Virus record (IMG/VR): IMGVR_UViG_3300035698_016751
Strand: one strand, 5' to 3'
Length of the DNA: 44,731 nt
Source: a virus
The position numbers were made by a program, and so were the translations under genes. The notes beneath the pieces were generated by a model, which was not told the origin of the DNA, made no database searches, and was given only the letters and a program-made list of their open reading frames with translations. Positions 13,373 to 41,885 of the stretch are shown in pieces. The stretch's first letter is position 1. Every line of letters begins with the position of its first letter.

Positions 13373-13383
13373 GGGGCTTAAAA

Positions 13384-15656: not shown

Positions 15657-15659
15657 AAC

Positions 15660-16157
15660 ATGAACGAATCAATTGCACAATTTTTGGTCCAAAATGATGA
15701 AGATGACAACGATGTGTTAAATCGTCCGTTATTTGATGTCAACATGCGGCTTTATAAAAACAATGTACATTATCGTACTGTAATTAATGATGCAATACGA
15801 TATATGGTATTTGTCCTGAAACAAAAATTTAATGATTATGGTAAGTTAAAAGGTATTTCTGGGGCTAACTTAGGCATTCCTTGGAACATTATCGCTTATT
15901 ATAATAATTCAGTGATGGTAATGATTAATCCTAAAATCACTGAAGCATGGTCCCCCGTTAAAGTGCTGAGCAATTGTGGTTCTTTGCGGCTTCCAGAAAG
16001 CATTAAGGTAGAACGACATGCCTTTATCATTTGTGAATGGTATGATACCAGTGGACAGTTACATAAAAAGGAATATGATAGAGACCAAGGTAGTCTGACA
16101 ATACAACATGAAGTTGAACACAACCAAGGCGTTTTAATAACACAAAAAGGACTATAA
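15660..16157 (+). CDS. def: peptide deformylase
   Basis: All three PDF motifs are present: GISGANLGIPW (G.G.AA.Q), SNCGSLRLP (EGCLS with the Cys ligand) and QHEVEHNQG (QHE.DHL.G, the HExxH metal site). Confidence 0.7.
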   Translation: MNESIAQFLVQNDEDDNDVLNRPLFDVNMRLYKNNVHYRTVINDAIRYMVFVLKQKFNDYGKLKGISGANLGIPWNIIAYYNNSVMVMINPKITEAWSPVKVLSNCGSLRLPESIKVERHAFIICEWYDTSGQLHKKEYDRDQGSLTIQHEVEHNQGVLITQKGL

Positions 16158-16303
16158 ATGTTTCAAAGATGGGTTAAGAATCTTTTCGTTAGAAATAAGG
16201 CTTATAAGGCTGATAAGGCAAGAACTGTGTTCTTTCAAAAAGCTAGTAAAAGAATAGCACAAGAAGTAGAAATGCGGCAGGCAAAATTTTTATTAGATTA
16301 TCG

Positions 16304-16331
16304 TTTACAGGAATAAAAAAAGTCCTACAAT
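16304..16331 (+). promoter_or_regulatory. sigma70-like promoter TTTACA-N16-TACAAT
   Basis: -35 at 16304-16309 and -10 at 16326-16331, about 50 bp upstream of ATG 16381. Confidence 0.4.
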
Positions 16332-16380
16332 ATAAACAACCAAGACGTATCGTGTAACTTAAAAAGGAAAAGGAATCACA

Positions 16381-17193
16381 ATGTTTAAAGCACTTTTTAG
16401 ATGGATTAAGGGAATCAAGTATCTATGGACTGGCAAGATTGATAAGGCCCGTGAAGAACTTGATATGAACCCGCATGTCATGAATGCCACGTATGATGAA
16501 ATTCTTGAACAGAAAAAGAATAGAATTCATCATTACAAAGACGCCATTTCTGCGATGGTTCACAGCAACGAGAAAAAGAAACAAATTCTCACAAATCTGA
16601 CGGAAGATGTCCAAAGACTTGAGAAACTGAAAAAGGGCGCAGCCGCAAAAGCCAAGAAAGTTGCCGCTACTCATAATGGTGTAAAAGCCGCATGTATGGC
16701 TGACCCTGAGTACGTAAGATGCTCTTCAGCGTACACCGACTTCTCTTCTACGCTAGAAGAAAAGCTAAACAGAATCACTGAACTCGAAGCCGATATTGAA
16801 GAGAAACTCCAAAATATCGACGGACATAAAATTCAAATCAAGAATCTCATCCGTGACCGTAAAAAGATTCAGGAAGAGAAGCACGAAGCTGTTGCAGATG
16901 TCCAAGGCGCACAGCACGAAAAAGAAATTGCGGATATGCTTACGGGCATCGCCAACGATACAACTTCCGCAGACCTTCAGCGTATGCGTGATATGCGTGG
17001 GAAAGCAAAGGCTAATGCTAAAGTCAGCAGCGAACTCGCAGGTCTGGATACTGATAGAGAAGAGTCTGACTTCCTTGAAGAAATTGCTGCTTCCGAATCT
17101 AATAGCGAATTCGAAAGCCTGATGGATTTCCAAGAAGACGAAGCGGAAGAAGGGATTGCGGCTCCGATAGAAGAAACTCAAATACCTGAATAA
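16381..17193 (+). CDS. PspA/IM30 (Vipp1/ESCRT-III-like) family coiled-coil protein
   Basis: The N-terminal amphipathic MFKALFRWIKGIKYLW and the 250-aa heptad coiled coil with an acidic tail resemble PspA ([25 protein letters not shown]...). Confidence 0.4.
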   Translation: MFKALFRWIKGIKYLWTGKIDKAREELDMNPHVMNATYDEILEQKKNRIHHYKDAISAMVHSNEKKKQILTNLTEDVQRLEKLKKGAAAKAKKVAATHNGVKAACMADPEYVRCSSAYTDFSSTLEEKLNRITELEADIEEKLQNIDGHKIQIKNLIRDRKKIQEEKHEAVADVQGAQHEKEIADMLTGIANDTTSADLQRMRDMRGKAKANAKVSSELAGLDTDREESDFLEEIAASESNSEFESLMDFQEDEAEEGIAAPIEETQIPE

Positions 17194-17333
17194 TAAGGAA
17201 TAATAAAAATGGGTAAAGGAAGAGATACAAGACCGAAGAAGAGTAAGAAGAAAAAAGAGAAGAAAATAAAGCCGAAAAAGTAATCGTGCCAAATTAATTG
17301 GCTTCCAAAATGTTCTATTGAAAGGGACTAGTA

Positions 17334-18398
17334 ATGAAGAATGCAAAGATGATGATTATGGCGTTGATGGTGTCGGTCATGGCGGTCGTAGGTTGTGGTG
17401 CAAAGAAATCAGAAAATATTACGAAGGCACCGGAAGGCATGAAGGTCGTAAAGCTGGCATGGAGCGAATATCCTTCGTGGTCCGTTTTCGGCGTTGCTGA
17501 TTTGCGTGAAATCGTGGATGGCCGAGAAGGTTGGGTTAGTCCTCTTGAGAGGAAGTACGGGCGTGACATTGTACTGGTTCAGGCAGATTATGACACCTGT
17601 ATAACGCTGTACGGTAGCAATATGGTGGATGCTGTTTGTATCACGAATATGGACACGCTTGCCCCGGCATTGAGTCGTGATTCCGTTGCAATTCTTCCGA
17701 CTTCAACGAGTGATGGGGCAGATGCTTGTATCGTTACTAATATAAGTAATTTGGATGATTTGGAAGGCAGAAAAACGTATGGGCTTGAAAAGTCAGTAAG
17801 CCAGTATGCACACGAACGGAATATCGAAATCGCAGGTAGGTCTGTTGCTGACTTCCCGTTTGCTCAGATGGACCCTTCTGCTGCTGCACAGGCAATGCAA
17901 ACAAATCAGAAGGGCATTGATGCCATTATGGTTTGGAATCCTTTTGTGTTGCAGACACTTCGCACTCGTGATGGAGCCACTGTCTTGTTCGATTCAACAA
18001 CTATCAAAGAAGAAATCATTGATATGGTTGTTATGGGCAAAGATGCAGTAGACGAGAAATCTGCCTGTCTTATTATTGAAGCGTTTTACGAAGTTCAGAA
18101 ACTTCTGGCCGACCCGAAGGAAACCGATGCAACGCATGTAGCTTTGGGTGCCAAGTTCTCAAATCTTGGGCTGGCCGATATGAAGATTGTTTTGAAACAG
18201 ACGAAGTGCTATAAGACTCCCGCCGAAGCACTTGCCCTGTTTAACTCGCCGAAATTCCAGAATGAAATTATGCCTAGGGTTGTCAAATTCTGCTCTGAGC
18301 ATGGTATGCTGGACAAGAAGGTGACTGTTGGGTTTAATGACATGGACGCACAGGTAAACTTCTCATCTGATTATATTAACAAAGTCAAGAATCAGTAA
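17334..18398 (+). CDS. ABC transporter substrate-binding lipoprotein, NitT/TauT (SsuA/TauA/NMT1-like) family
   Basis: Lipoprotein signal with lipobox MAVVGCGAKK. SBP fold features. Immediately upstream of a permease and an ATPase of the same family. Confidence 0.6.
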   Translation: MKNAKMMIMALMVSVMAVVGCGAKKSENITKAPEGMKVVKLAWSEYPSWSVFGVADLREIVDGREGWVSPLERKYGRDIVLVQADYDTCITLYGSNMVDAVCITNMDTLAPALSRDSVAILPTSTSDGADACIVTNISNLDDLEGRKTYGLEKSVSQYAHERNIEIAGRSVADFPFAQMDPSAAAQAMQTNQKGIDAIMVWNPFVLQTLRTRDGATVLFDSTTIKEEIIDMVVMGKDAVDEKSACLIIEAFYEVQKLLADPKETDATHVALGAKFSNLGLADMKIVLKQTKCYKTPAEALALFNSPKFQNEIMPRVVKFCSEHGMLDKKVTVGFNDMDAQVNFSSDYINKVKNQ

Positions 18399-18420
18399 AC
18401 GAGTTTCCCAGACACACAGA

Positions 18421-18457
18421 GGCGGCTCTTCGGAAACGGAGAGCCGCCTTATTTTTT
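18421..18457 (+). terminator. rho-independent terminator
   Basis: Stem GGCGGCTCT / AGAGCCGCC around TCGGAAACGG, followed by TTATTTTTT. Confidence 0.75.
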
Positions 18458-18459
18458 GG

Positions 18460-18488
18460 TTTACAAGTGACTGTAAACTCCCTACAAT
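18460..18488 (+). promoter_or_regulatory. sigma70-like promoter GGTTTACAA-N-CTACAAT
   Basis: -35 at 18460-18465 and -10 TACAAT at 18483-18488, directly after the terminator and ahead of the permease gene. Confidence 0.4.
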
Positions 18489-18510
18489 GACCCTAGAAAG
18501 AAGGTGACAA

Positions 18511-19308
18511 ATGGTTGGCGATGCCATATCAAAAAAGAAACGTATCACTATTGGAATTTTGTCTTGTGTGATTTGTTTAAGTGGATATTTGTGGATGTCA
18601 CACAAACAGCATCAAATTAACAAGAAAGATACTACCCTCCCTACTTTATCTCAGTTCGGTGAAGGGATAGAAAAAATAACGACAAGAGATGCTGCCGGGG
18701 ATGTGTGGGTCATTGATGACTCAATAGCAACGGGTGGACGACTCATTTATGGATTTGCTGTTGGAGTTATTATATTTGCTACTCTAGGTGTGCTGATGGG
18801 GTGTTATCAACCCATGTCCGCATTCTTTTTGCCGCCGATTAATTTTCTTTCTAAAATACCACCTACAGCTATGCTTGCTGTGTATTTTGTTTTGTTTGGA
18901 ATTGAAACACAATTGTTTGTAGCAATGATTGCCTTGGGTATTGGACCGACATTAGCAATGTCTATCTACGATTCAGTAAACAAAGATGTAAAAGACCATG
19001 CTCTTTACAAAGCCTATACGTTGGGTGCTTCTCATATGGAAGTTGTGTACGAAGTAGTATTCAAACAGATTCTTCCTAGAATCATTCAAAATATCCAATT
19101 GCAAATTGGGCCAGCTATGGTGTTTCTTATTGCGGCTGAATGGATGATAGCAGATATGGGATTCGGATATAGATTGCGAATACAATCTCGATTGCTTAAT
19201 ATGAACGTGGTATATTTGTATCTGTGTTTACTTGGTCTTGCGGGATTTGGCTTTACTTGGGCATGTACTTTTTCTCGTAGAAAACTGTGTGGATGGTTTG
19301 GAGAATAA
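18511..19308 (+). CDS. ABC transporter permease (SsuC/TauC-type, binding-protein-dependent inner-membrane component)
   Basis: Six predicted TM helices. Gene order SBP-permease-ATPase. Confidence 0.65.
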   Translation: MVGDAISKKKRITIGILSCVICLSGYLWMSHKQHQINKKDTTLPTLSQFGEGIEKITTRDAAGDVWVIDDSIATGGRLIYGFAVGVIIFATLGVLMGCYQPMSAFFLPPINFLSKIPPTAMLAVYFVLFGIETQLFVAMIALGIGPTLAMSIYDSVNKDVKDHALYKAYTLGASHMEVVYEVVFKQILPRIIQNIQLQIGPAMVFLIAAEWMIADMGFGYRLRIQSRLLNMNVVYLYLCLLGLAGFGFTWACTFSRRKLCGWFGE

Positions 19309-19310
19309 AA

Positions 19311-20216
19311 ATGACAGATACAAATAATGTATTGGAAATAACTGGTGTGACGCACGGCTTTGGTCCCAAAAGAGTTCTGAATAATATTAATTTTGGAATT
19401 AAAGCAGGTCAAATTACTGCTATTGTGGGACCAAGTGGTTGCGGCAAATCCACATTGTTTAGAGCCATTCTCGGAACACATCCCCCTCAAGAGGGAACAA
19501 TATGTGTAGACGGTAAAGAAATGAATGGTCCGTCCGAAAAAATAGGAATTGTGTATCAGCATTATTCACTATATGATTTCCTTACTATTGGGGAGAATGT
19601 GATGTTTGGTCTTAAACTAGACCAGACATCTATCCCAGATAGAATCTTTAAGTATTTCTCATGGAGAAAATTGAGAAATAAACATAGAGCTAAAGCGGCT
19701 GAAATGTTGGAAGTAGTTGGGCTTCCTAATACTATGAGTTCATATCCAAGTGAACTTAGTGGTGGTATGAGACAAAGAGTAGCAATCGCACAAGCTCTAG
19801 TTATGAGGCCAAGTATTCTTCTTCTTGATGAGCCATTTGGTGCTTTGGATGCAGTGACGAGAATGAGTTTGCAAAGATTGTTGCTTCGTTTTTATCAAGA
19901 AAACTTGGAAGCTAAAAAAAGAGGCGAACGTCCCCCTCATACCGTCATTATTGTTACTCACGAATTGGACGAAGCTATTTATGTGAGTGATAGAATACTT
20001 GGTCTATCACAATATTATGAGGGTGCTGATGGGTCAAAGATTGTGTATGACAAACCTTCTCCTGTGTTTAGACCGGATGAGCCAGCAGATACAGATTCCT
20101 TTATGGAACAAAAGACGGAAATTACACATACAGTTATGGATGCTGATTACTGTCAATCGTATCAAGAATGTTTGACAGATTGGAGTAAACGAGCCTCCGA
20201 AGAAGGCCGAATATAA
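19311..20216 (+). CDS. ABC transporter ATP-binding protein (SsuB/TauB/NrtD-type)
   Basis: Walker A GPSGCGKST, ABC signature LSGGMRQRV, Walker B ILLLDEPF, H-loop VTHE. Start reassigned to ATG 19311 (GGAGAATAAAA SD). Confidence 0.8.
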   Translation: MTDTNNVLEITGVTHGFGPKRVLNNINFGIKAGQITAIVGPSGCGKSTLFRAILGTHPPQEGTICVDGKEMNGPSEKIGIVYQHYSLYDFLTIGENVMFGLKLDQTSIPDRIFKYFSWRKLRNKHRAKAAEMLEVVGLPNTMSSYPSELSGGMRQRVAIAQALVMRPSILLLDEPFGALDAVTRMSLQRLLLRFYQENLEAKKRGERPPHTVIIVTHELDEAIYVSDRILGLSQYYEGADGSKIVYDKPSPVFRPDEPADTDSFMEQKTEITHTVMDADYCQSYQECLTDWSKRASEEGRI

Positions 20217-20412: not shown

Positions 20413-20601
20413 ACAAGAATTTATCGACAATTACGTGGCTACTTTCCTTGCAACATTTTCGGCTATACATTATGATGATTACTGTAGCAGAGGATTACAT
20501 GAAGAATTCCACAATCAACCAGTTGAAGATGCTGAGCATCTGGCTGAGTTGGCGTGGAAAAGTTTAGAAGAACACAAGGCTTGAATCTGGAGAAAATAAA
20601 A

Positions 20602-21546
20602 ATGTCAAAAGTAGTAATGATATTGGGCTACCCTGCTTCATCGAAGGGGACACATGCCGAAGCATACATCGCTGATGGATATGTCCATCTGAATAGAGAT
20701 AAAGAGGGTGGTAAGGTTGTCTCATTATTGCCTAAGATGGAAGAAGCAATCAATGCCGGGAAAGATGTTGTTTTAGATAACCTGTTTCCTAATATTGAAT
20801 CGAGAAAACCATTTGTTGAATTGGCACATGCAATGGGTGTTGAGATTAGTTGTGATTGGATGTCAACTAGTCTGGAAGATTCACAAATAAATGCTCTTCA
20901 CAGAATGTGGAAAAGGTATGGTCAACTTTTCCTTGACCCAGCTTCTTTGAAAGCTGCGTCCGCTGATGTGAAAAAAGACTCTAATATGTTTCCGATTGTT
21001 GTTTTGTTTAAGTATAGAAAAGAGTTTGAAAAACCCACTACAGCCGAAGGGTTTTCTGTAGTAAACAAAATTCCGTTTAATCGTAACTACGATGAAAACT
21101 ATACGAATAAGGCTATCTTTTTTGATTATGATAACACACTAAGAACCAATACTGGAAATGGTAAATATCCAGTTCATCCAGATGAAGTTGTTTTGATGCC
21201 GGGAAGAAAAGAGAAAATAAAACAACTGCTGGATGAAGGGTGGTTACTTCTAGGTGTGTCGAATCAAGCTCCTATTGCAAGGAAACAATTGACAGAGGAA
21301 AATGCGATAGCTTGTTTTGATAGAACTAACGAATTGCTTGAGGCTGATATCGAAGTTGTGTATTGTCCTCATAGTGTTCCCCCATCATGTTATTGTCGCA
21401 AGCCACAAAGCGCACTTGGTGTATATTTTATCGAAAAACATAAACTGGACCCAAGAGAATGTATATTCGTGGGTGATATGACAACTGACCGCACATTCGC
21501 CTCAAGACTAAATATACCTTTTGAATATGCGAAAGATTTTTTTTAA
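20602..21546 (+). CDS. polynucleotide 5'-kinase/3'-phosphatase (T4 Pnk-like)
   Basis: N-terminal P-loop kinase MILGYPASSKGT. C-terminal HAD phosphatase motif I FFDYDNTLR, later LLGVSNQ and VGDMTTD. Start at ATG 20602 with a GGAGAAAATAAAA SD. Confidence 0.7.
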   Translation: MSKVVMILGYPASSKGTHAEAYIADGYVHLNRDKEGGKVVSLLPKMEEAINAGKDVVLDNLFPNIESRKPFVELAHAMGVEISCDWMSTSLEDSQINALHRMWKRYGQLFLDPASLKAASADVKKDSNMFPIVVLFKYRKEFEKPTTAEGFSVVNKIPFNRNYDENYTNKAIFFDYDNTLRTNTGNGKYPVHPDEVVLMPGRKEKIKQLLDEGWLLLGVSNQAPIARKQLTEENAIACFDRTNELLEADIEVVYCPHSVPPSCYCRKPQSALGVYFIEKHKLDPRECIFVGDMTTDRTFASRLNIPFEYAKDFF

Positions 21547-25270: not shown

Positions 25271-25909
25271 ATGAATGCACTAGTATTAGTAGACATCCAG
25301 CCTACCTTCATGCCCGGAGGTGGCTTGCCAGTTCCGAAAGGTGACGAAGTAGTTCCGGTGGCCAACGAAATGATTAAAAAGTTTGAGGCTGCTGGGGATA
25401 TTGTAGTCGTAACACAGGATTGGCACCCTGAAGACCACTGTAGTTTTGCAGAATGCTACAAAGGGCCAGATGCCCCATACGCAATTTTTGATAAAGTGGT
25501 TACACAAGGAGTCGAACGTACATTGTGGCCCAAACATGGTGTACAAGACACCGCAGAAGCAGAACCCCATCCCGATTTGAAATTAAGTGAATCGACCATA
25601 TTTATTAAAAAAGGTATGGACCCAAATGTTGATAGCCATAGTGCATTCTGGGGCCACGCACGACAAACCAATACTGGCCTCGCTGCCAAGCTTCGTGAAG
25701 CTGGGGTTTTGCCGGGAAGCAAGGTATTTTTCTTGGGTCTTGCAACAGGTGTTTGTCTAATTCTTTCAGCACTCGATTCAGTTGAAGAAGGCTATGAAAC
25801 AATAGTAATCATTGATGGATGCCGTGCGATTTCGTCCGAAAGTCACCGTAAAGCTGTAGCCGACATGGTTGATGCAGGAATATCAGTTGTGTTTTCCCGT
25901 CACGTATAA
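25271..25909 (+). CDS. pncA: nicotinamidase / pyrazinamidase (isochorismatase fold)
   Basis: Aligns along its length with E. coli PncA. LVLVDIQPTF matches LLLVDLQNDF (catalytic Asp), VTQDWHPEDH matches ASQDWHPANH (metal-binding His), K at the FIKKG position, and the catalytic Cys in FLGLATGVC matches MGLATDYC. Confidence 0.8.
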   Translation: MNALVLVDIQPTFMPGGGLPVPKGDEVVPVANEMIKKFEAAGDIVVVTQDWHPEDHCSFAECYKGPDAPYAIFDKVVTQGVERTLWPKHGVQDTAEAEPHPDLKLSESTIFIKKGMDPNVDSHSAFWGHARQTNTGLAAKLREAGVLPGSKVFFLGLATGVCLILSALDSVEEGYETIVIIDGCRAISSESHRKAVADMVDAGISVVFSRHV

Positions 25910-25928
25910 ATACAACTTCTAGGTTTAC

Positions 25929-25970
25929 AAAACGCCTTACTGGTCTATAATCAGGTCAGTAAGGCGTTTT
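25929..25970 (+). terminator. hairpin terminator after pncA that also carries a promoter
   Basis: 14-bp stem AAAACGCCTTACTG / CAGTAAGGCGTTTT followed by T-rich sequence. A sigma70-like TTTACA (25924-25929) -N16- TATAAT (25946-25951) lies inside it. Confidence 0.7.
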
Positions 25971-26013
25971 CTATTAGTTACCTTGTACATGAGAGTACAG
26001 AAAGGAACACACT

Positions 26014-27225
26014 ATGTTACTACTTCCAGCCCAATCTGTTCTCGATACAGATTTATACAAATTATCCCAACAGGCAGCTATACTTGCTAAATATCCTAAC
26101 GTCGATATGGAGTGGCGATGGGCCAATCGTAATGGGACACCATTTAGTAATAAGGCGGTAGACGCCATTCGTGAAAATATTGAAAGGATGGCAGAGCTTA
26201 AAGTCAATGATGAACAGATGGCAGCTTTTGCAAAAGCCTGTTCGTTCTTCAATCCTTCTTACTTTGCATATCTGAAAAATTACAGATTCAATCCTAAAGA
26301 AGTGAAAATCACTCAGGATAATGATGAAAACTTTGCAATGTCTTTTCGTGGAAAATGGCATAGCAATATTTTGTGGGAAATTCCGGGGTTGTTCATCCCC
26401 AGTGATGCATACTACAAGTTTGACGATACAGACTGGTCAGATGAAGGACAAGAAGCTTTGCTGCGTGAAAAAGGGAAATTCCTTTGGAACTGTACCTTTG
26501 CTGATTTCGGAACAAGGCGAAGAAGAAATTTTGAATCTCAAGACCGTGCTGTAAGAATTCTGAAAGATAACCCCGGCTTTGTTGGGACCAGCAATGTTCA
26601 CTTGGCTTTGAAGTATGGTGTAAAGCCAATTGGCACTTTAGCACATGAATGGATTATGGCACATCAGGTTTTGTCTGGTATTCGTCATTGTAATAGAGCA
26701 GCGATGCAGGCATGGAATGATGTTTACAAAGGCAATTTGGGTATCGCCCTTCCTGATACCATTGGTTCTGATTCATTCTTTGCTGATTTTGATGGTGTTC
26801 TTAGCAGGTTGTTTGATGGCACCAGACACGACAGTGGTTGTCCTTATGAATATGGTGAAAAGACAATTGCTCACTATGAGAGTTTGGGAATTAATCCATG
26901 TTCAAAGGTTATCATCTTTAGTGATGGATTGCGTGCCAATGCCGATGCGAGTCCTGAAAGAAATCCTGAAAAAATCAGAAAATATTTTGAAGGACGTATT
27001 AAGACATCATTTGGTATTGGAACAGATTTCACAAATGATTTCCCCGGTAGTCCTGCGTTGAATATCGTAGTCAAACCTTATACAGTCAATAATATTCATG
27101 TTGTTAAATATCCCGATAGTGCGGGAAAAGCGATGGGCGACCCTGATGCACAGAGAGTTGTACGATATATTTCCCGTGGAATCTCGCTGGATACTCCGTT
27201 GGCTTCATTAAAAAAGGGAAAATAA
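26014..27225 (+). CDS. pncB: nicotinate phosphoribosyltransferase
   Basis: Collinear with E. coli PncB. Shared motifs are LDTDLYKL (LDTDAYKL), DFGTRRR, GTSNVHLA (GTSNYDLA), TLAHEWIMAHQ (TQAHEWFQAHQ), GIALPDT, RHDSGCPYEYGEKTIAHYESLGINPCSKVIIFSDGL, SFGIGT and LNIVVK. Confidence 0.85.
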   Translation: MLLLPAQSVLDTDLYKLSQQAAILAKYPNVDMEWRWANRNGTPFSNKAVDAIRENIERMAELKVNDEQMAAFAKACSFFNPSYFAYLKNYRFNPKEVKITQDNDENFAMSFRGKWHSNILWEIPGLFIPSDAYYKFDDTDWSDEGQEALLREKGKFLWNCTFADFGTRRRRNFESQDRAVRILKDNPGFVGTSNVHLALKYGVKPIGTLAHEWIMAHQVLSGIRHCNRAAMQAWNDVYKGNLGIALPDTIGSDSFFADFDGVLSRLFDGTRHDSGCPYEYGEKTIAHYESLGINPCSKVIIFSDGLRANADASPERNPEKIRKYFEGRIKTSFGIGTDFTNDFPGSPALNIVVKPYTVNNIHVVKYPDSAGKAMGDPDAQRVVRYISRGISLDTPLASLKKGK

Positions 27226-27367
27226 TGATTGATAAAATTATCACATTAACGGAAGAAGAATCAAAAAGATTGACGGAAAGACCGTTAAAAGTTGCGGGAA
27301 AAGATTTTGAAGAATTAGAAGATTGGAGAAATCGTTCTCGCAGGTCAAATATTAGGGTAAATTAAAA

Positions 27368-29134
27368 ATGAAAATACTTATTGCACAAACCAATACTACT
27401 CCGAATGATTTTGAAGGTAACTTTCAACAAATCAAAGATGCTATTGATGCGGGATTGAATAAGGTAGACCTTATCATCACCCCAGAATTATCAATTCCGG
27501 GGTATCTCGTAAAAGACATGATGTATGATGATTCTTTCATTGAAGGAAATCTTAAAACTCTACAACAAGTAGTAAAAGCAACTAATTGGTCAGTTCGTAA
27601 GACTGAAGACACTGCAACAACCTATGTGGTAGTAGGCTACATTGATAAAAACCGAACTGGCAAAGGTAAGCCATTCAAAAACATGCTTGCTGTTATCTGT
27701 GATGGGGCTATTGTTGCAACATATCAGAAAAGACTTCTTCCTTTTTATGATGTATTTGATGAAGGACGATATTTTGAGCCGGGAACCGAAGGAACTGTCA
27801 TTGAGATAGCAGGAGAAAAATGGGGTCTAGCTATCTGTGAAGACATCTTTAATGATAAAGGCATGGATGATTATAACTATGCCACGAATCCTCTTGCTGA
27901 GTATCGTAAAATAGGTGTCAATAATATCATCAGTATAAATAGTTCTCCTTTCGTTATGGGGAAACCCAAAGAACGAGCCGATATGGTGCGAGAGAGTTTC
28001 AAAAATGGAACTATAATTTATTGTAATCAAACAGGTGGTCAGGATGATTTGGTGTTTGATGGTCACAGTATGATTGTTCAAAATGATAAGGTGTTGTTGT
28101 TTGCGGATGCAGAAACACCATTGATAGATTTTGATTTTGAAAATTGTTCACAAAATGATGTTATCAAGATGTCACAAATTGTTGGAAACCAAGCGGATGA
28201 CCGAATAGCTTCTCTTTATCAAATGGGCGTTATCGGCTTGAGAGATTATATCCAAAAAAATGGATTTAAAACAGCCGTATTCGGAAGTAGTGGAGGAATT
28301 GATAGTGCATTAGTTGCTGCAATGCTTTGTGATGCCATAGGACCGGAAAACGTGTACGGCATAAGAATGCCTAGTGTGATAAGTAGTTCACACTCCGTTG
28401 ATGATGCTGGTGCGCTTCAAAAGAATTTCGGGTTTAATGATTTTCTTGTTCCCATTGAACACAAAGACAATCTGAAGAAATATAATGAGATATTTCTTCC
28501 GCTCGACAGTCCGCCCCTTGCTAATGGACAATATAATGCTGTTGCTGACGAAAATATACAAGCTAGAATTCGTGGCATGATTGTCATGCACTTCTCAAAT
28601 GCATTCGGAGCAATTCCGATAGCAACGGGCAATAAATCTGAACTTTCAGTTGGATACTGTACTCTTTATGGTGATATGTGCGGTGGATTTGCTCCACTCA
28701 GTGATGTATACAAGATGGATGTATACGCATTGGCTGAATATCGTAATAAAAATGGAGTCATGATTCCTGTTTCCATTATAGAAAAAGCACCGAGTGCAGA
28801 GTTGTCGGAAGGGCAAGAAGATTCAGATTCTCTTCTTCCTTATCCTATTCTGGATATGATTCTGTTTGGTCTGGTTGAACATCACATTAGTAGTTTCGAA
28901 AAATTCTGTGCTGTTTATAAAGATATGGTTTCAGAAGCCTATGGGTCTTCTTCAAATAAATCAATCGGTATTATAAAAGATTGGATTAAAAACGAAGGTG
29001 CGGAACAAGCATATAATAAAACAATCCAAATGGTTAACAGAAACGAATTCAAGCGAAGACAAGCCGCACCGGGAATTAAGTTCAGTAAAGTAGCCTTTGG
29101 GTCTGGTCGGCGTATGCCAATCACGAAAAAGTAA
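27368..29134 (+). CDS. nadE: glutamine-dependent NAD+ synthetase (N-terminal nitrilase/CN-hydrolase domain plus C-terminal NAD synthetase domain)
   Basis: N-terminus MKILIAQTN...ITPELSIPGY with the catalytic Cys in GLAICEDIF (CN hydrolase E-K-C triad). C-terminal ATP pyrophosphatase P-loop FGSSGGIDSALVAAM. At 588 aa it matches two-domain NadE. Confidence 0.85.
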   Translation: MKILIAQTNTTPNDFEGNFQQIKDAIDAGLNKVDLIITPELSIPGYLVKDMMYDDSFIEGNLKTLQQVVKATNWSVRKTEDTATTYVVVGYIDKNRTGKGKPFKNMLAVICDGAIVATYQKRLLPFYDVFDEGRYFEPGTEGTVIEIAGEKWGLAICEDIFNDKGMDDYNYATNPLAEYRKIGVNNIISINSSPFVMGKPKERADMVRESFKNGTIIYCNQTGGQDDLVFDGHSMIVQNDKVLLFADAETPLIDFDFENCSQNDVIKMSQIVGNQADDRIASLYQMGVIGLRDYIQKNGFKTAVFGSSGGIDSALVAAMLCDAIGPENVYGIRMPSVISSSHSVDDAGALQKNFGFNDFLVPIEHKDNLKKYNEIFLPLDSPPLANGQYNAVADENIQARIRGMIVMHFSNAFGAIPIATGNKSELSVGYCTLYGDMCGGFAPLSDVYKMDVYALAEYRNKNGVMIPVSIIEKAPSAELSEGQEDSDSLLPYPILDMILFGLVEHHISSFEKFCAVYKDMVSEAYGSSSNKSIGIIKDWIKNEGAEQAYNKTIQMVNRNEFKRRQAAPGIKFSKVAFGSGRRMPITKK

Positions 29135-29145
29135 GGAATAGAACA

Positions 29146-29511
29146 ATGTTAAAAAAAATATGTATTTTTTTCATGTGGCTATGTATATTCTTTGTAATGA
29201 TATTAGCTGTACTAGTCGTTGACCACATATGGCAAACGAGCAAATCTAATACGCCATCACGAAAAGAATGCATCAGCCTAGGCTTCCGGGGGGATATGAG
29301 TTGGTGGTCGCATAATAACCGAGTGATTATCAATTCCCCAGATAATAAGTATCATGGGCTAGTTGGCGAGTTGAAGGAATGGAAAGAGAATGCCAAGTTG
29401 TGGCTTGTATACTTATATGATAGAAATGGTAATATTCAATGTGTTAATTTTAAGCCGAGCCAAATTTGCAATATTTCCTGTGGTGAAAAGATGCCTGTGG
29501 TGAAAAAATGA
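29146..29511 (+). CDS. small signal-anchored hypothetical protein (121 aa)
   Basis: N-terminal hydrophobic segment ICIFFMWLCIFFVMILAVLVV. Sits between nadE and nadD. Confidence 0.35.
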   Translation: MLKKICIFFMWLCIFFVMILAVLVVDHIWQTSKSNTPSRKECISLGFRGDMSWWSHNNRVIINSPDNKYHGLVGELKEWKENAKLWLVYLYDRNGNIQCVNFKPSQICNISCGEKMPVVKK

Positions 29512-30380
29512 ATGAAACACAAAAAAAAGTAAATGCGGTGTTCACTGAAAGCTTTGGTAGGACTCCACTCAAACTAAGGCAAAAAGATATTTTTGGTGAA
29601 GCTTTAGAATTGCTACGTGCCACCGACCTGAGAAACCTAAAGGAAGAGACAGGAGATTGTTTGGCATCTTTACACCAACTCTGCAATGAGTGTGGTTGGG
29701 ATGCAAATGAACTTATTAATGATACTTTGATAAAAATAGGTCTAAGGGCAGAGCAATATAAATCTCTTGGACGTAAAATAAAAGTAGCAATCTTAGGTGG
29801 TGCGTTCAATCCCATTCACAAGGGACACATCGAATGTGCTAAATTGGTTCTTGATACTTGTAAGACATTCGATGAAGTTTGGCTTATGCCATGCTACGGA
29901 CACATGTATGGAAAACAAATGGTTTCTCCCGAACACAGAATAGCTATGGCAAAATTGGCTTGTAAAACTGATGGAAGAATCAAAGTATGCGAATATGAAA
30001 TTGACAATCAATTAAAGGGAGAAGCATATTTTCTCCTGTCTAAATTGATGGATGAAGATTTTGCTAAGGATAAATTTGACTTTTCCTTCATTATAGGAAT
30101 GGACAATGCTAATACTTTTGACCAGTGGGTAAACTACGAACACTTGGAAAGACTTATAAGGTTCGTTATAGTGCCTAGGACGGGCGTAGAAAGAGATGAA
30201 TCCATTAATTGGTATCTCAACCCCCCGCACATTTATATTAGCGGAGAGAAGCCCCTGCTTGATATTTCTTCCTCAGAAATAAGAGATATGGTTACAGCTA
30301 AGAATTGGCAAGCAGTTGAACAGGTACTAGACCCTGCGGTTATAGAATATATAATTAAAAATGGATTGTACGGAGACTAA
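29508..30380 (+). CDS. nadD: nicotinate-nucleotide adenylyltransferase with an N-terminal MazG-like all-alpha NTP-pyrophosphatase-like extension
   Basis: Residues about 100-290 carry VAILGGAFNPIHKGHIECAK (NadD G-G-x-F-x-P-x-H-x-x-H) and ISSSEIR. Residues about 20-95 (FGEALELLRATDLRNLKEETGDCLASLHQLCNECGWDANELINDTLIK) fit the MazG/HisE EE-xx-E/D helix pattern. Confidence 0.75.
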   Translation: MNETQKKVNAVFTESFGRTPLKLRQKDIFGEALELLRATDLRNLKEETGDCLASLHQLCNECGWDANELINDTLIKIGLRAEQYKSLGRKIKVAILGGAFNPIHKGHIECAKLVLDTCKTFDEVWLMPCYGHMYGKQMVSPEHRIAMAKLACKTDGRIKVCEYEIDNQLKGEAYFLLSKLMDEDFAKDKFDFSFIIGMDNANTFDQWVNYEHLERLIRFVIVPRTGVERDESINWYLNPPHIYISGEKPLLDISSSEIRDMVTAKNWQAVEQVLDPAVIEYIIKNGLYGD

Positions 30381-33998: not shown

Positions 33999-35069
33999 AT
34001 GAATGTTAATGCTACAATCTGCGGTGTGAAATTGCGTGACCTGAAGGTTATGAATAGCAAGTTTGATGGTTATGATATCCATACTGGTAAACGATTCAAA
34101 GCTGGGAAACAAATTGCATATCTACATGGTAGCAATCTTACACCTAAAGAGTCAAAAGCACTATTTCCCAACGGGAAAGTGAGTGCCATTTCTGTTCGTT
34201 GGCCTCTTAGAGAGAACAAGACCAAACCGAATGAGTACAAACCCGTACCACCACAGAAGAAACGTCCTTTTGTCACACCTTTCACGCCTAGTGAAAGTCA
34301 GGAAGAAATTCTTGCTGCATTGCTTGGAAGTGAAGACCATCTTCTTATCAAGGCTTTTGCTGGAACAGGTAAAACTTCTACACTCGTTTGGTTGGTTCAA
34401 GAATTGTCCAAAAGGGGTCTGACTAAAAACAAAAAAATCATTTACTTGGCATTCAACAAAAGCATACAAGAGGAACTTGCAGAGCGATTGTCTGGAACAG
34501 GTGTCCCTGCTCTTACTACTCATGCGTTTGGATTTCAAGCAATTAAGACAGTATTTGGTGGGGAAATCAAACCTACTAGCGGCAAATGTGCTTCCACTAC
34601 ATTTCTCAAATTAGTTTGTCATGAAAATGGATTACCTATCACGGCATTAGGTTTTAGTGTCGCACGTCATGCGAAAGAATATTTGCTTCGGTCTGCTGTT
34701 CTGGAATTGGTCGGTTATATTAAATCTTGGGCAATCTGTCCCTCGTTTTTTGGCCGAAACATTGATTCACCATGGAATTTCAGTGACAAACAAAAAGAAG
34801 CTATATTTGAATTGATAGAGATGTATGAAATTGAGTTGCCAAGTGCGAATTGGACCCCAGAAGATTTGGTGAAATATGCTTGCAGCATTGTAACAAATAA
34901 TTTACCAGTTAATCATGATTTATTGGTAGAAATTGATTATGATGATATGCTTTATTTTCCACTTGTTTTCAATTTGAACCTTCCGAAATACGATTTAGTT
35001 CTGACTGATGAAAGTCAGGATTTTAATAGATGTCAGATTTTACTTCTCGAAAAAATGATTGCTGCTTAA
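33999..35069 (+). CDS. UvrD/PcrA-like SF1 helicase, N-terminal fragment (motifs I, Ia, II)
   Basis: Motif I LLIKAFAGTGKTSTLV, motif Ia LAFNKSIQEELAERL, motif II LVLTDESQDFN. The ORF stops 7 codons after motif II. Confidence 0.65.
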   Translation: MNVNATICGVKLRDLKVMNSKFDGYDIHTGKRFKAGKQIAYLHGSNLTPKESKALFPNGKVSAISVRWPLRENKTKPNEYKPVPPQKKRPFVTPFTPSESQEEILAALLGSEDHLLIKAFAGTGKTSTLVWLVQELSKRGLTKNKKIIYLAFNKSIQEELAERLSGTGVPALTTHAFGFQAIKTVFGGEIKPTSGKCASTTFLKLVCHENGLPITALGFSVARHAKEYLLRSAVLELVGYIKSWAICPSFFGRNIDSPWNFSDKQKEAIFELIEMYEIELPSANWTPEDLVKYACSIVTNNLPVNHDLLVEIDYDDMLYFPLVFNLNLPKYDLVLTDESQDFNRCQILLLEKMIAA

Positions 35070-37114: not shown

Positions 37115-38233
37115 ATGGAGAAATCAACAGGTAGAGCAATAGTAGTGGGCGACCCAAATCAAAGCCTGTATAGGTTTAGGGGTGCTGACGCACAAGCGTT
37201 TCCTCGTATCGCAGAAATGTTGTCCCAATCGAGAGACGTTGTGGAATTGACCTTGCCGACAAATTATCGTTGTGACATCAATGTTATTGACAATGCACAA
37301 AGATGGGTTCCTGACATTAGAGGCAATTCAAAAGCAACTGGCACTGTTGATGAAATCACATTTGGGAAATCCATGACCCGTGCCAATAATAATGGAAAGG
37401 ATATTTCGCTTCCTGATGGAGAAAATAATCAAGAGCGAACGCTTCCTATTCCCGGTAAAGATGAAGTTTCATTCGCATTTCTTTGTCGTGTTAATCTTCC
37501 ATTAATTATCACAGCATATCAGTTAATTGCACAGGGTAAAAGAGTCTGCATTATTGGGCGAACTCAGCTTGGCGGTCCTCTCAAAAGAATCATCACAGAC
37601 CTTTGTGGTTCCAATCCCGCCGTAGCAGGATACACAAATCGAATTAGTGATAGAAGAAAGAAAAATGGCAAAGTGAAAAAAGGTTTGATGTCTCGTCTAG
37701 CACATTACCTTGAAATGCAAAGTCACAAATTATCGGATGAAAAATACGAAAATAAATTAGAAGCATTGCAGCAAAACTGTGAATGCATTGAGGTTATTGC
37801 GACTCGTATCCAAGACGATAAAGTTTCTAGTATCATCGAAGAAATTGACAAGTTATTTACTGAAGAACCAACTCCCGGTGTAATTTCTTTGAGTACAATT
37901 CATAGGTCAAAAGGTCTGGAGTGGGATGTTGTTTTTATTCTTCGCCCTGACCTTCTCCCTCATCCTCGTGCCGAAGGCAAGCCAGAAGAAGAGCAACAAG
38001 AAAATAATTGTTGCTACGTTGCGGCAACACGGGCGAGACATCGTTTGTATTATGTTTCTAATTGGCCATTTGGTTCAGGAAAATCTACCAAAAAATTTGC
38101 CGAGAAGGGAATTAAATCTGATAGTGTTGTTATTTTTGATGAGCCATTTGTACAACCGCCAGTGACAAATATCCAAGACATATTGGGAATAAGTAATATT
38201 ACGGTTTGTGATGATGATAATCGACCTTTCTGA
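37115..38233 (+). CDS. UvrD/PcrA-like SF1 helicase, C-terminal fragment (motifs III to VI)
   Basis: Motif III AIVVGDPNQSLYRFRGAD at the N-terminus, motif V/VI region STIHRSKGLEWDVVFIL and NCCYVAATRARHRLYYV. Confidence 0.65.
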   Translation: MEKSTGRAIVVGDPNQSLYRFRGADAQAFPRIAEMLSQSRDVVELTLPTNYRCDINVIDNAQRWVPDIRGNSKATGTVDEITFGKSMTRANNNGKDISLPDGENNQERTLPIPGKDEVSFAFLCRVNLPLIITAYQLIAQGKRVCIIGRTQLGGPLKRIITDLCGSNPAVAGYTNRISDRRKKNGKVKKGLMSRLAHYLEMQSHKLSDEKYENKLEALQQNCECIEVIATRIQDDKVSSIIEEIDKLFTEEPTPGVISLSTIHRSKGLEWDVVFILRPDLLPHPRAEGKPEEEQQENNCCYVAATRARHRLYYVSNWPFGSGKSTKKFAEKGIKSDSVVIFDEPFVQPPVTNIQDILGISNITVCDDDNRPF

Positions 38234-38325: not shown

Positions 38326-39318
38326 TTGTCTAAAAATGCTAAAAATGAATGCCTTCCCTATGTCGAGATGCCGAAGGCACGTAAAGAAGAGTGCGCACGG
38401 ATTATAACTGAGGGCAATCTTCTTTTGAAGAAACTTCATAAGCAGGCAACATCGAGTATGTCAAGGGCAAAGTTCTTGATTGCACTGTTAGCAAAATTAG
38501 AAGATGGGTTTTGTGATGCTAATGGTAATATCCCTAAGATTCCTGTTGCCGTGAAGATTCATGGCGTTAGAATCAATAAAGGGGATGTTGTTAAAATTCT
38601 GACTGTTAAGAATTTGGAGTGGGATATCCTTTGCAGCATGAGTAATTTCTTGAAGCAATTGGTCAACAAGACGTATCTTAATCCTTATAACATCGTTGAG
38701 TGGAATGACCTTTATAACGAAGCAATGACTGCGGCTGTTGAGGCTATCCATTATTATACTAAACCCGATACAAAGGTTATTACTTATGTCGGAGAAGCGG
38801 TTCGGAGACATCTGTTTAATGTAGTTCAAAAAGATGCTCCGATGGCTGGTGTTAGTCGCCAATCAAGAGATTTGATGTCTAAATTCGCCAAAGCAAAACG
38901 TGAAGCAGAACAGAAAGTAGGACATCCTGTTGGCTTTGACGAATTGGTGAAAAAGTTGGAATTGAATCCTCGTCAATGCAAAACACTAACAAATATGCTG
39001 GTGCGTGTAGTTGAGGAACAGGCGTTGAATATGTCAGATGACAAAACTGCCAATGATTATACATCTACGGCGAAAAACAATAACAGACCTGTTCTTGAGC
39101 TTGACCAGCAAGAAGCAATTGCCAAAGCAAACTTGAATCCGTGGGAAACGGATGTACTGGTTGCCTTTTTGGAATCGTCACCGGGAACAACTGGGTGGCA
39201 GACCGAAGTAGCAAAACGCCACATCAATCCCGCAACAGGAAAATGTTTCAGCCGAGCCGCACCTGCGATAGCTTTGAAAAGAATTAAAAAGAAAATCAAA
39301 CAGAACTATGCGGCGTAA
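38326..39318 (+). CDS. sigma-70-family-like transcription factor (TTG start)
   Basis: TTG start with AAGGAG at -8. Region-2-like DLYNEAMTAAVEAIHYYTKPDTKVITYVGEAVRRHLFNVV (compare DLIQEG.IGLM.AV.KFD...FSTYA.WWIRQAI). Region-4-like LNPWETDVLVAFLES...ALKRIKKKIK. Confidence 0.5.
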   Translation: MSKNAKNECLPYVEMPKARKEECARIITEGNLLLKKLHKQATSSMSRAKFLIALLAKLEDGFCDANGNIPKIPVAVKIHGVRINKGDVVKILTVKNLEWDILCSMSNFLKQLVNKTYLNPYNIVEWNDLYNEAMTAAVEAIHYYTKPDTKVITYVGEAVRRHLFNVVQKDAPMAGVSRQSRDLMSKFAKAKREAEQKVGHPVGFDELVKKLELNPRQCKTLTNMLVRVVEEQALNMSDDKTANDYTSTAKNNNRPVLELDQQEAIAKANLNPWETDVLVAFLESSPGTTGWQTEVAKRHINPATGKCFSRAAPAIALKRIKKKIKQNYAA

Positions 39319-39552: not shown

Positions 39553-40701
39553 ATGAACCAACCTACAGAAATACAAAAGAGCAGGGATAAGGATAACAGA
39601 GAAATCCAAACTCAGTTTACTTTCTTTCCGAAGGATAGTATTCCTCCATCTGCCGCAGACCGAACTTGGCGAGTAAGCCGGGAGAATCCTTCCTGCCCTC
39701 TGGGTCAATTTATCGGAAATGATTCTGCAATACAGAGATTGGGAAGAGCAGCATTTTCCGCAATGGGTAGATATAATCATTGTTGTAGCGATATGTCGTT
39801 TGCCCTGTTAGGTCCAGCATCTACAGGTAAAACAACTCTCGCACGATTGTTTGCGAAAACAATAGATATTCCTTTTGTGGAAATTAGTCCGAAATCCGTT
39901 TCTAAGCCGCAGGATGTTTTGATAAAAATTTCGGAAGTATGTGATACTTCATTAGTCGAAACTCCCAATGGGACATATTCTTTGGAATTGGTCAGAGTGG
40001 CACCAGCCGATGGTTCACCACCCTCTCCAAAACAAAATTATTTTTGGTTGCCGCCCATGGTGGTATTTCTTGATGAAGTCCATGCATTGAATAGTTCTAT
40101 AATTCAGTCGTTGTTGAAAGCTACCGAGAAATCAGATTCTATTTTTGATACAGGCGATTGGATTGTCAATACAAGCAATGTTTGCTGGATGATTGCGACG
40201 ACCGACAGAGGGAAATTGTTCGATGCGTTTGACACTCGTTTTTCAAAGATTTTCCTTGATTTGTATTCCACTGAAGAGATGGCTCAAATTATTCAGGTGG
40301 CAAATAAGGATTTAGATTTTAAGGTATGTGAGTTGGTTGCTCATTATGGTGGTAGAGTGCCGAGAGAAGCGTTGGCGTTCGCTACTGAAATGAAACTTGA
40401 ACGTGAAATGAGTCCTAATGATTCATGGGAAGATATCGCTAGTCGAATTGCAGAAGAAAGTGGTATCGACCAATTTGGAATGACTTATCAGCGAGTGAAT
40501 ATTTTGAGGTCGCTGGTAGATGGACCAGTTTCAAAATCGAATCTGGCATTGAAAGTAGGTTGCAAGGAAGAAGAGTTGATTAAATATACTATCCCTCCGT
40601 TGCTTACAGTGTCAAAAAACCAACCGCCGCTGATTCAGGTTAACAGTCGTGGATATGCGATTACGGACGCTGGAATAACTGAACTGCAAAAGAGACAGTA
40701 A
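39553..40701 (+). CDS. RuvB-like AAA+ ATPase (Holliday-junction branch-migration helicase-like)
   Basis: Walker A LLGPASTGKTTLA, Walker B VVFLDEVHAL, sensor 1 IATTDRG, RGTPRIA-like GRVPREA. A C-terminal winged-helix segment is collinear with the RuvB domain III. Confidence 0.6.
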   Translation: MNQPTEIQKSRDKDNREIQTQFTFFPKDSIPPSAADRTWRVSRENPSCPLGQFIGNDSAIQRLGRAAFSAMGRYNHCCSDMSFALLGPASTGKTTLARLFAKTIDIPFVEISPKSVSKPQDVLIKISEVCDTSLVETPNGTYSLELVRVAPADGSPPSPKQNYFWLPPMVVFLDEVHALNSSIIQSLLKATEKSDSIFDTGDWIVNTSNVCWMIATTDRGKLFDAFDTRFSKIFLDLYSTEEMAQIIQVANKDLDFKVCELVAHYGGRVPREALAFATEMKLEREMSPNDSWEDIASRIAEESGIDQFGMTYQRVNILRSLVDGPVSKSNLALKVGCKEEELIKYTIPPLLTVSKNQPPLIQVNSRGYAITDAGITELQKRQ

Positions 40702-40727
40702 GGTTAGTTAGCATGTACATAAGAGGT
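40702..40727 (+). promoter_or_regulatory. phage-type promoter box GGTTAGTTAGCATGTACATAAGAGG
   Basis: TGTACAT family. Drives the GC-rich unit that follows. Confidence 0.5.
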
Positions 40728-40920
40728 TCCGAGGACGAAAGCACGCTAAGCCAAGTGCGAGGCCGTGCAGTACGGTGGCCGCTGCTTGAAATGCGACCTA
40801 ACCAACGGACCCACCCCTCCCGGCGAATGCCGGGAGTCGTTGAGGTAGAGTTAGCCGCCAGATATAAACAAAAAAGGTTTGTCGCCAACGAGGAATCAAT
40901 TGTGGTTCCTCGTTGCCTTT
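40728..40920 (+). ncRNA. candidate structured non-coding RNA (GC-rich, about 190 nt, promoter-to-terminator unit)
   Basis: A sharply GC-rich island between two promoter boxes, with internal hairpins such as CCCGGCGAATGCCGGG. It ends in a 10-bp stem CAACGAGGAA/TTCCTCGTTG plus a T-rich tail at 40891-40920. Confidence 0.35.
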
Positions 40921-40928
40921 AAGTTTGC

Positions 40929-40950
40929 TTTAGTTAGTATGTACATCCCA
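40929..40950 (+). promoter_or_regulatory. phage-type promoter box TTTAGTTAGTATGTACATCCCA
   Basis: TGTACAT family, 24 bp upstream of ATG 40974. Confidence 0.5.
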
Positions 40951-40973
40951 GTTACAGTTAGGAGACAAAAAAC

Positions 40974-41885
40974 ATGGCTGGATTTAAACAACAAGCAATT
41001 AGAGAAGATATTACGAATCGAATCATTACTTCTCTAAAAGATGGAAAAGTGCCTTGGCGTAAGCCTTGGTCCGCAGACCCAAACTGTGGAGCATCCCGAA
41101 ACATTATCAGTAAAAATGCATACCGTGGAATCAATCCTTTCCTTTTGGAAATCGCTGACCACAGATGCCAGTGGTGGGGAACATACAAGCAATTCAAGGG
41201 ATTGGGTGGTCAGGTTAAGAAGGGTGAAAAGGGAACTAAAATTGTTTATTGGAAGAGTTTTGATAAAGAACCAGATGCCAATGGAAAGGTAAAAAAGGCT
41301 TTCTTTATCCGGTTCTACACCGTCTTCAATTTGGACCAAGTAGAAGGTGGAGAAAAGCTTGAAAAATTCCGTCCTAAAGAAGAAGACCTTGATAACGTTA
41401 ACTTTGGAAGTGATGATGCGTTTAAATCTTTTGATGAAATAATTGATGCTACTAAAGCGGACATTCGCTTTGGCGGGAACAAGGCTTATTATAAAAGAGC
41501 CAGTGGACCTACGTGGCCGAAGCATACAGATGGAGATTATATTACTTGTCCTCATCGTAGACAATTCCCTGATATGAGGGAATGGTACGATACGATATTC
41601 CATGAATTAGCTCACTGGTCAGAAATTCGTTTGAAATGGGATGGTTCGTATGCGATGGGAGAATTGATTGCTGAAATTTCGGCATGTTTCATTCCTCCGT
41701 CAGTGGGACTCCCGGTTAGTGATAACATGGAGAATCACAATCGTTATCTGGCAAGTTGGCTTGAGAAAATGAAGGATGACCCAAAGTTTATCTTTAGGGC
41801 AGCGTCACAAGCACAGAAAGTGTCAGATTATGTTCTTCATTTCAGTCATCCTGAAATTGAATGGAAAGAAGAAGAGGACGAATAA
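40974..41885 (+). CDS. ArdC-like anti-restriction protein (ssDNA-binding N-domain plus zincin metalloprotease domain)
   Basis: ArdC-N signature VPWRKPWSADPNCGASRNIISKNAYRGINPFLL. C-terminal HExxH in IFHELAHWSE. Confidence 0.6.
   Translation: MAGFKQQAIREDITNRIITSLKDGKVPWRKPWSADPNCGASRNIISKNAYRGINPFLLEIADHRCQWWGTYKQFKGLGGQVKKGEKGTKIVYWKSFDKEPDANGKVKKAFFIRFYTVFNLDQVEGGEKLEKFRPKEEDLDNVNFGSDDAFKSFDEIIDATKADIRFGGNKAYYKRASGPTWPKHTDGDYITCPHRRQFPDMREWYDTIFHELAHWSEIRLKWDGSYAMGELIAEISACFIPPSVGLPVSDNMENHNRYLASWLEKMKDDPKFIFRAASQAQKVSDYVLHFSHPEIEWKEEEDE

Follow-up and report, generated by a model that had tools for sequence, protein, structure and literature searches.

IMG/VR virus record IMGVR_UViG_3300035698_016751 comprises 44,731 nucleotides (nt), and this whole stretch is referred to here as the window. 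Between two of its genes lies a 226-bp unit (40704-40929) that consists of a promoter-like box, a GC-rich stretch, an A-rich linker and a terminator hairpin, with a second box and the ardC gene directly after it. The gene upstream of the unit (39553-40701) encodes an AAA+ ATPase with weak RuvB-like similarity and a RuvB/Orc-like C-terminal part. The downstream gene (40974-41885) encodes ArdC, with an ArdcN and a zincin peptidase domain. An original prediction, made from the sequence alone, had described this place as a promoter-to-terminator unit without credible coding capacity in a replication/anti-restriction module, and had proposed a structured non-coding RNA. The location is as described, with helicase, sigma-like, AAA+ ATPase and ArdC genes around the unit.

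The box that heads the unit, P1 (TTAGTTAGCATGTACAT, 40704-40720, + strand), was found both by a box scan and by direct reading, and corresponds to the TGTACAT promoter box that had been placed before the GC-rich stretch. The next box, P2 (TTAGTTAGTATGTACAT, 40930-40946, + strand), belongs to repeat family D1 and would serve ardC. In a repeat search the two boxes form a 17-nt direct repeat with 94% identity, 226 nt apart from start to start. P1 is followed on the same strand by a short 5' segment (40721-40740, direct reading) that contains the Shine-Dalgarno (SD)-like motif AAGAGG with no start codon in reach. The rise in G+C content that had been noted here is pronounced: 63.3% at 40742-40861, against a window mean of 38.6% (z = 4.6), which makes this the most GC-rich 120 nt in all 44.7 kb (the runner-up has z = 2.9). 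Marked GC skew is absent at the unit, and no further copies of it, whether as a template/variable pair of the kind seen in diversity-generating retroelements, as iterons or as repeated protein-binding sites, were found in the window.

The GC-rich stretch contains the hairpin that had been reported as CCCGGC-GAAT-GCCGGG; its stem is real and extends to eight perfect base pairs (CTCCCGGC-GAAT-GCCGGGAG, 40817-40836, + strand; repeat pair I7, 100% complementary). A stem equal to it arises in 1.05% of dinucleotide shuffles of the region. Further downstream, an A-rich linker (AGATATAAACAAAAAAGGTTTGTCGC, 40860-40885, + strand, direct reading), which the partition function leaves largely unpaired in the ensemble, leads into an intrinsic-terminator-like stem-loop (40886-40915, + strand; repeat pair I2), in which 13 pairs enclose a 4-nt loop and which ends in the tail CCTTTAAGTT. 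A T-rich, interrupted tract (CCTTTAAGTTTGCT, 40916-40929, + strand, direct reading) separates this stem-loop from P2, so that the terminal stem and T-rich tail of the original prediction are both present. Terminator-like stems of at least 12 pairs occur at only five + strand positions in the window (1345, 6420, 18419, 25929 and 40886). Two of them lie directly ahead of a box (40886/40930 and 25929/25974), and a strong stem-loop thus adjoins only 2 of the 11 boxes in the window.

A repeated promoter-like box

The motif TTAGTTA-N3-TGTACAT, with up to three mismatches allowed, has 11 copies in the window, all on the + strand, where shuffling leads one to expect 0.37; none of 100 shuffles reached 11. 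Nine of the copies lie at or past 25974, which places them mainly in the right part of the window. Apart from P1, nine of ten copies have a start codon 8-63 nt downstream, the exception being the copy at 4876. At four boxes (33974, 37090, 39528 and 42219) the distance to the ATG is exactly 8 nt, which suggests leaderless or near-leaderless mRNAs. The box is kept on the coding strand in fourteen relatives (L001-L014) whose ATPases are 78-83% identical to that of the window, and this conservation argues that it is a clade-wide regulatory signal. The natural inference is a promoter for a phage-directed RNA polymerase holoenzyme.

We further note a second promoter-like class, sigma70-like TTTACA-N16/17-TATAAT, which serves the left half of the window. 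Its sites at 5859, 10536, 25217 and 25924 (11/12 matches) all lie at or before 26 kb, and the + strand at 40000-41200 has no reported site of this class. The unit itself contains, inverted and imperfect, a 13-nt copy of the left half of its own box (40791-40803 versus 40702-40714, ATGCGACCTAACC versus GGTTAGTTAGCAT; repeat pair I3, 85% complementary). The 4876 box is followed by an ORF-free stretch of about 170 nt and then by an ATG at 5063 that opens a 32-residue open reading frame (ORF). Beside this ORF, reading by eye finds a frame that stays open for about 175 codons (approximately 5077-5606) with no in-frame ATG, GTG or TTG. The region 4876-5606 resembles a single gene that a frameshift, whether programmed or introduced in assembly, has split near a T-run at about 5083-5090.

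Coding capacity of the unit

A 69-residue ORF (40713-40922, + strand) spans most of the unit; its ATG belongs to the box, and the terminator hairpin lies inside its 3' end. The original prediction had dismissed it as the only ORF present, beginning in the box and lacking an SD sequence. The start within the box and the absence of a workable SD stand, but the ORF is not the only one, as a second open frame of 75 residues occupies the - strand at 40661-40888. For the AAGAGG motif after P1 there is no ATG, GTG or TTG within reach, and no internal start has a usable SD; after other boxes, GGAGGG or GAGAAGG is followed by an ATG.

The 69-residue ORF has no Pfam match, finds only itself among 5.8e9 protein clusters (E <= 10), and has no relative other than itself in an exhaustive phmmer search of 1.84e9 representatives. 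The 75-residue - strand frame likewise has no homologue and shares no words with any protein. Codon usage was scored as log-odds trained on 22 long genes of the window. On this scale the 69-residue ORF reaches -0.06 per codon, compared with 0.40 +/- 0.10 (minimum 0.02) in in-frame 69-codon segments of genes, and its G+C content at third codon positions is 0.52, compared with 0.34 +/- 0.07 in genes. Low codon-usage scores are also found in some small putative genes of the window. Two frames over the unit are open end to end and a third is interrupted by a single stop; open frames of this kind are expected by chance at 60% G+C. We judge the unit to be non-coding and the 69-residue ORF to be spurious, in agreement with the original prediction; a foreign orphan micro-ORF is conceivable, if only remotely.

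Recurrence of the unit and its absence from relatives

Four independent metagenome contigs (L015-L018) carry the unit at 100% identity and match the window over 1.4-4.3 kb with zero variation. This recurrence indicates that the sequence is real. Its source samples are JGI 3300005918 and 3300025697, together with ENA ERZ27316532 and ERZ27315476. Microdiversity was sought through cluster members and exact-protein look-ups; every copy returned was 100% identical, and the other contigs break at the unit. In one sample the assembly breaks there, with L015 stopping at 40889 and L041 beginning at 40934, and three independent contigs share an end point at 42031. These breaks may reflect strain heterogeneity or assembly problems at hairpins or repeats.

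All of the closest relatives, with ATPases 78-83% identical, lack the unit. Seven of them (L001-L007, with 80% ATPase identity) have the ATPase stop followed directly by one box and then ardC, the two genes being 34 nt apart, as against 272 nt in the window. Unrelated small ORFs follow the ATPase gene in L008-L011 (78%) and in L012-L014 (83%). The differing content after the ATPase gene shows the site to be variable. Taken together, the relatives without the unit and the box repeat that flanks it argue that the unit is a recent, lineage-specific, moron-like insertion bounded by a duplicated box. Relatives also carry tandem boxes without cargo, 27 nt apart (at 2496 and 2523 in L001, spanning 2496-2539, and at 1697 and 1724 in L008, spanning 1697-1740). 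Duplication of the box is thus recurrent and common in the clade, and does not necessarily imply a gene.

Predicted fold and searches for homologues

The minimum free energy (MFE) and centroid structures of the + strand agree on a succession of elements: a hairpin H1 (GCACG...CGUGC, 40741-40768), a branched domain (40774-40859) that is closed by the helix GGUGGC/GCCGCC and carries the perfect 8-bp hairpin at its apex, a C-rich internal loop, the A-rich linker and the terminator. All of these are predictions. The C-rich loop (CCCACCCC, 8 nt, 40809-40816, + strand) is predicted by the partition function to be accessible, with an unpaired probability of 0.77-0.95 at 40810-40816.

Fold z-scores were obtained by comparing the MFE with that of shuffled controls. 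For 40718-40930 (213 nt) the MFE is -73.6 kcal/mol on the + strand (z = -2.6) and -76.9 kcal/mol on the - strand (z = -3.3). With the terminator excluded (40721-40883), the values are -51.3 kcal/mol (z = -1.08) and -57.1 kcal/mol (z = -2.04), respectively. The + strand core (40741-40864, 124 nt) has an MFE of -48.5 kcal/mol (z = -2.44). Thermodynamics gives no strand preference. We assign the RNA to the + strand from the way in which its box and terminator, and every gene around it, are oriented. The motif GAGG occurs five times in the unit, with 1.2 expected (p ~0.005), and CGAGG three times; the motif was picked post hoc and most copies are predicted to be paired, and we give the excess little weight as a signal.

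Several structural candidates were tried and set aside. As judged by inspection, the 5' GGUUCC could pair with the left terminator arm over no more than 6 bp, too few for a riboswitch-style antiterminator. Hammerhead and other small ribozymes, a 6S-like rod and a tRNA anticodon-loop decoy were likewise rejected by inspection, and an R-loop origin was dismissed for want of GC skew. ARAGORN finds no tRNA or tmRNA genes in the window.

Searches for relatives of the unit covered several collections. A blastn search in distant mode against GenBank phages and PLSDB plasmids gave no match to the GC-rich part. Exact-seed scans of IMG/VR with six segments or structure-aware patterns returned only chance matches, either inside coding regions or without stem complementarity, and the hairpin 21-mer has no exact copy among IMG/VR contigs. 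One 18-mer scan of JGI metagenome contigs recovered the phage's own contig and six chance matches, and one 18-mer scan of 185,579 GTDB species genomes yielded four chance matches. These collection scans use exact seeds, which diverged relatives could escape. An nhmmer search over the fetched loci recovered the query alone. So did a covariance model (R1, 36 pairs) of the core 40741-40864, run over related and candidate loci of about 420 kb in total. A 19-nt identity to the unit in L026 was dismissed, as it falls within the ORF of a 602-residue repeat protein, and the GC islands of the relatives L024 and L025 were rejected as analogues, being located within long ORFs.

A candidate RNA cassette and its rivals

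We favour the reading that the unit is a transcribed, promoter-bounded non-coding RNA cassette that gives rise to an RNA of about 200 nt, and put its probability at roughly 0.45. In this account, the accessory cassette would comprise a further phage box, some 165 nt of GC-rich, non-coding DNA of foreign appearance and a terminator, and recombination at the repeated box would most likely have brought it in. The discrete RNA would be co-expressed with the helicase, sigma, ATPase and ArdC genes around it. In favour of this reading are the expression signals (the enriched and conserved box ahead of start codons, the sigma-like gene nearby and the strong terminator hairpin), the missing coding capacity, the insertion between duplicated boxes, the recurrence of the identical sequence, the deviating G+C content, and the perfect 8-bp hairpin, the core fold z-score and the accessible loop. 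The anatomy of the unit, its non-coding status, its insertion and the clade-wide conservation of the box are shown by the sequence; that the box is an active promoter, that an RNA is made, terminated and stable, and that it has any target is inferred. As to function, the accessible C-rich loop, next to the rigid GC hairpin, could pair with G-rich, SD-like sequences in mRNAs of the host or the phage. Such a trans-acting small RNA (sRNA) is the mechanism that we prefer, at a low probability because no target was found.

Several results weigh against an RNA gene. Fold stability is marginal, and the + strand does no better than the - strand. The T-tract of the stem-loop at 40886 is interrupted and the least regular among the five strong stems, and hence weaker. 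Rfam 15, a check suggested with the original prediction and one that covers riboswitches, ribozymes, 6S, SRP, RNase P, Y RNA and known phage RNAs among others, gives no match, either for the whole window at gathering thresholds or for 40600-41050 at E <= 10 with permissive filters. The original interpretation is only partly upheld. A discrete, non-coding, independently inserted unit between a promoter-like box and a terminator is supported; a structured RNA, for which the G+C content and a few hairpins speak, is not, given the marginal fold z-scores without strand preference and the empty Rfam search. No homologue emerged from the viral, metagenome, genome, phage and plasmid searches, which leaves no covariation and no evidence of selection. 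All copies are clonal, and neutral junk would appear "conserved" to the same extent. Finally, predicted duplexes with the 94 translation-initiation regions of the window are no better than those of shuffles, the best reaching -40.2 kcal/mol against a shuffled-RNA mean of -41.0 kcal/mol.

A first rival is functionless captured DNA, a GC-rich foreign fragment trapped between two boxes by illegitimate or box-mediated recombination. Such a fragment would perhaps be transcribed and yet inert, the terminator just halting a wasted transcript. The absence of the unit from all close relatives, the lack of any family or homologue, the marginal fold z-scores with no strand preference, and the cargo-free tandem boxes in L001 and L008 are all consistent with it. 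Captured DNA would, however, leave unaccounted for a well-formed terminator of 13 bp exactly before the next box, together with a perfect 8-bp GC hairpin. The compositional contrast has not been ameliorated towards the 39% G+C of the phage, and neither of the two fully open frames shows a fragment of a donor gene. We regard this explanation as doubtful, though it has to be taken seriously.

The junction of terminator and promoter could also act in cis, as a transcriptional insulator that shields ardC from read-through, with the GC-rich stretch as a spacer or attenuator leader. The pairing of a terminator with a box immediately downstream, at 40886/40930 and again at 25929/25974, fits this idea, as do the stem-loops of PeSL cassettes, which are terminators or attenuators beside promoters in variable regions (PMC2839356). 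However, the relatives have ardC behind a single box and no insulator, a second upstream promoter and 165 nt of GC-rich DNA would be superfluous for insulation, and the antiterminator alternative, with 6 bp only, is unconvincing. An insulator is therefore quite improbable.

An orphan small protein, encoded by the 69-residue ORF, from an internal start of it or by a 27-residue, Cys-containing ORF (40765-40848), has in its favour a frame that is open throughout the unit, the SD-like AAGAGG after the box and the low codon-usage scores of some small putative genes. It is very improbable given an ATG within the box, no start at a workable distance from any SD-like motif, no homologues in either protein collection, a coding score under that of all genic segments, a terminator hairpin in the 3' end of the ORF, and the chance expectation of open frames at this G+C content. 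We give equally little credence to an element that acts as DNA rather than RNA, for example in the initiation of replication, in recombination or in packaging: the unit does lie in a replication module beside the AAA+ ATPase with its RuvB/Orc-like C-terminal part, with an A-rich tract adjoining GC-rich DNA and an inverted partial box, but it has no iterons, repeated protein-binding sites or marked GC skew, and it is missing from close relatives with the same replication genes and so is not an essential origin.

Within the favoured reading of an RNA cassette, the roles offered by the original prediction, a regulatory sRNA, a protein sponge or an anti-defence decoy, are speculation. The last would make the unit an anti-defence RNA decoy deployed with ArdC, which a huge-phage lineage would have acquired as a mobile, promoter-bounded, RNA-only moron. 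It might mimic a host CRISPR repeat, or the RNA ligand of another defence system, around the CUCCCGGC-GAAU-GCCGGGAG hairpin and its flanks. Specific support for a decoy is limited to the neighbourhood and the hairpin, and in all its versions together we hold it to be highly unlikely.

Comparison with known systems

Morons are independent promoter-gene-terminator units found between genes that are adjacent in related phages, a concept due to Juhala and Hendrix (review: PMC3594210). The unit resembles them in having its own promoter-like box and terminator, as sequence signals, in its sharply deviating G+C content (63% against 38.6%), and in its insertion between an ATPase gene and ardC that are contiguous in related genomes. 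It differs in having no credible ORF, as classical morons carry protein genes, which benefit the host or the phage, and the surrounding genome has the look of a large phage of the lytic type that possesses its own class of promoters, and not of a repressed lambdoid prophage.

A second parallel is found in the PeSL cassettes of T4-type phages, which undergo modular shuffling via recombination between motif copies (PMC2839356; also PMC4122927). Common to both is a promoter motif that recurs along with stem-loop terminators where genomes vary, and the 226-bp indel relative to the relatives, bounded by the 17-nt box repeat, fits recombination between motif copies. The motif of the window, TTAGTTA-N3-TGTACAT, is however not a sigma70-consensus (-35/-10) early promoter, and it has a strong adjacent stem-loop at only the two boxes named above (25974 and 40930). 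The cargo also differs, since PeSL cassettes carry small ORFs.

With respect to RNA genes, phages and prophages encode trans-acting sRNAs with Rho-independent terminators, among them DicF, IpeX, AgvB/AsxR and the PAK_P3 sRNAs. The unit is like these in its length of about 200 nt, in running as a stand-alone stretch from promoter to terminator without an ORF, and in its position in an accessory/early region. Unlike them, it has no sequence or structural similarity to known members (Rfam is negative), no target among the 94 start regions of the window, and no poly-U tail of the kind typical of Hfq-dependent sRNAs. The RsaE/RoxS sRNAs and RNAIII of Firmicutes use C-rich loops to mask SD sequences. 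The unit shares with this group a predicted unpaired C-rich motif in a loop next to a stable helix, and the leaders that follow the box in the phage are rich in G, as in GGAGGG and GGCAGGGGG. It differs in having a single C-rich loop and no homology to these RNAs, and its pairing with the start regions of the window is no better than that of shuffled RNA.

Genomic neighbourhood and other features of the window

Upstream of the ATPase gene, a 330-residue protein (38326-39318, + strand) resembles FliA/WhiG sigma factors weakly but consistently (TIGR02479; its E of 2.4e-7 is below the curated cut-off), with no match in Pfam and no sequence match in the PDB. We consider it a candidate sigma factor of the phage that may act at the TGTACAT-box promoters. 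Further upstream, a UvrD-type helicase is divided between two ORFs, one for its N-terminal and one for its C-terminal half (33999-35069 and 37115-38233, + strand), about 2 kb apart with other ORFs in between. Each half has a TGTACAT box ahead of it, and the split is also found in the relative L008.

The ATPase family has more than 400 metagenome members. Its only GenBank phage match is a 595-kb "uncultured phage" (LR756511.1, 47% identity), and its relatives in IMG/VR lie on contigs of 22-572 kb, four of seven of them above 200 kb. The window thus appears to belong to a large, huge-phage-like phage that is uncultured.

Elsewhere in the window, an 874-residue ORF (1447-4071, + strand) matches the Major Vault Protein shoulder (PF11978, 1.3e-23) as well as Vault_3 and SPFH/Band_7 domains, and represents a Major Vault Protein-like or SPFH protein in a phage-like genome. 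A further stretch (12494-20216, + strand) holds unusual phage cargo: a VWA-domain protein, an OmpA-domain protein, a peptide deformylase, and the permease and ATPase of an ABC transporter. A polynucleotide kinase/3'-phosphatase (AAA_33 and PNK3P, 20554-21546, + strand) and a weak 2H-phosphoesterase match (10076-10525, + strand) suggest RNA-repair functions; no RNA ligase was recognised in the window.

Genes of NAD metabolism are grouped at 25271-30380 (+ strand). They encode an isochorismatase/nicotinamidase-like protein (25271-25909), a nicotinamide phosphoribosyltransferase-like protein (26014-27225), an NAD synthetase (27368-29134) and a protein with MazG and cytidylyltransferase-like (NMNAT-type) parts (29508-30380). 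This cluster may constitute an NAD-replenishing counter-defence pathway.

Implications

At present the unit is a single, clonal, homologue-less candidate, best filed as an orphan phage moron or candidate phage sRNA. Should it prove to be transcribed and to have a function, it would represent an RNA-only moron in an uncultured large phage. The phage-specific promoter box could then provide a handle by which recombination moves small RNA genes, and an orphan sRNA would be added beside an anti-restriction gene.

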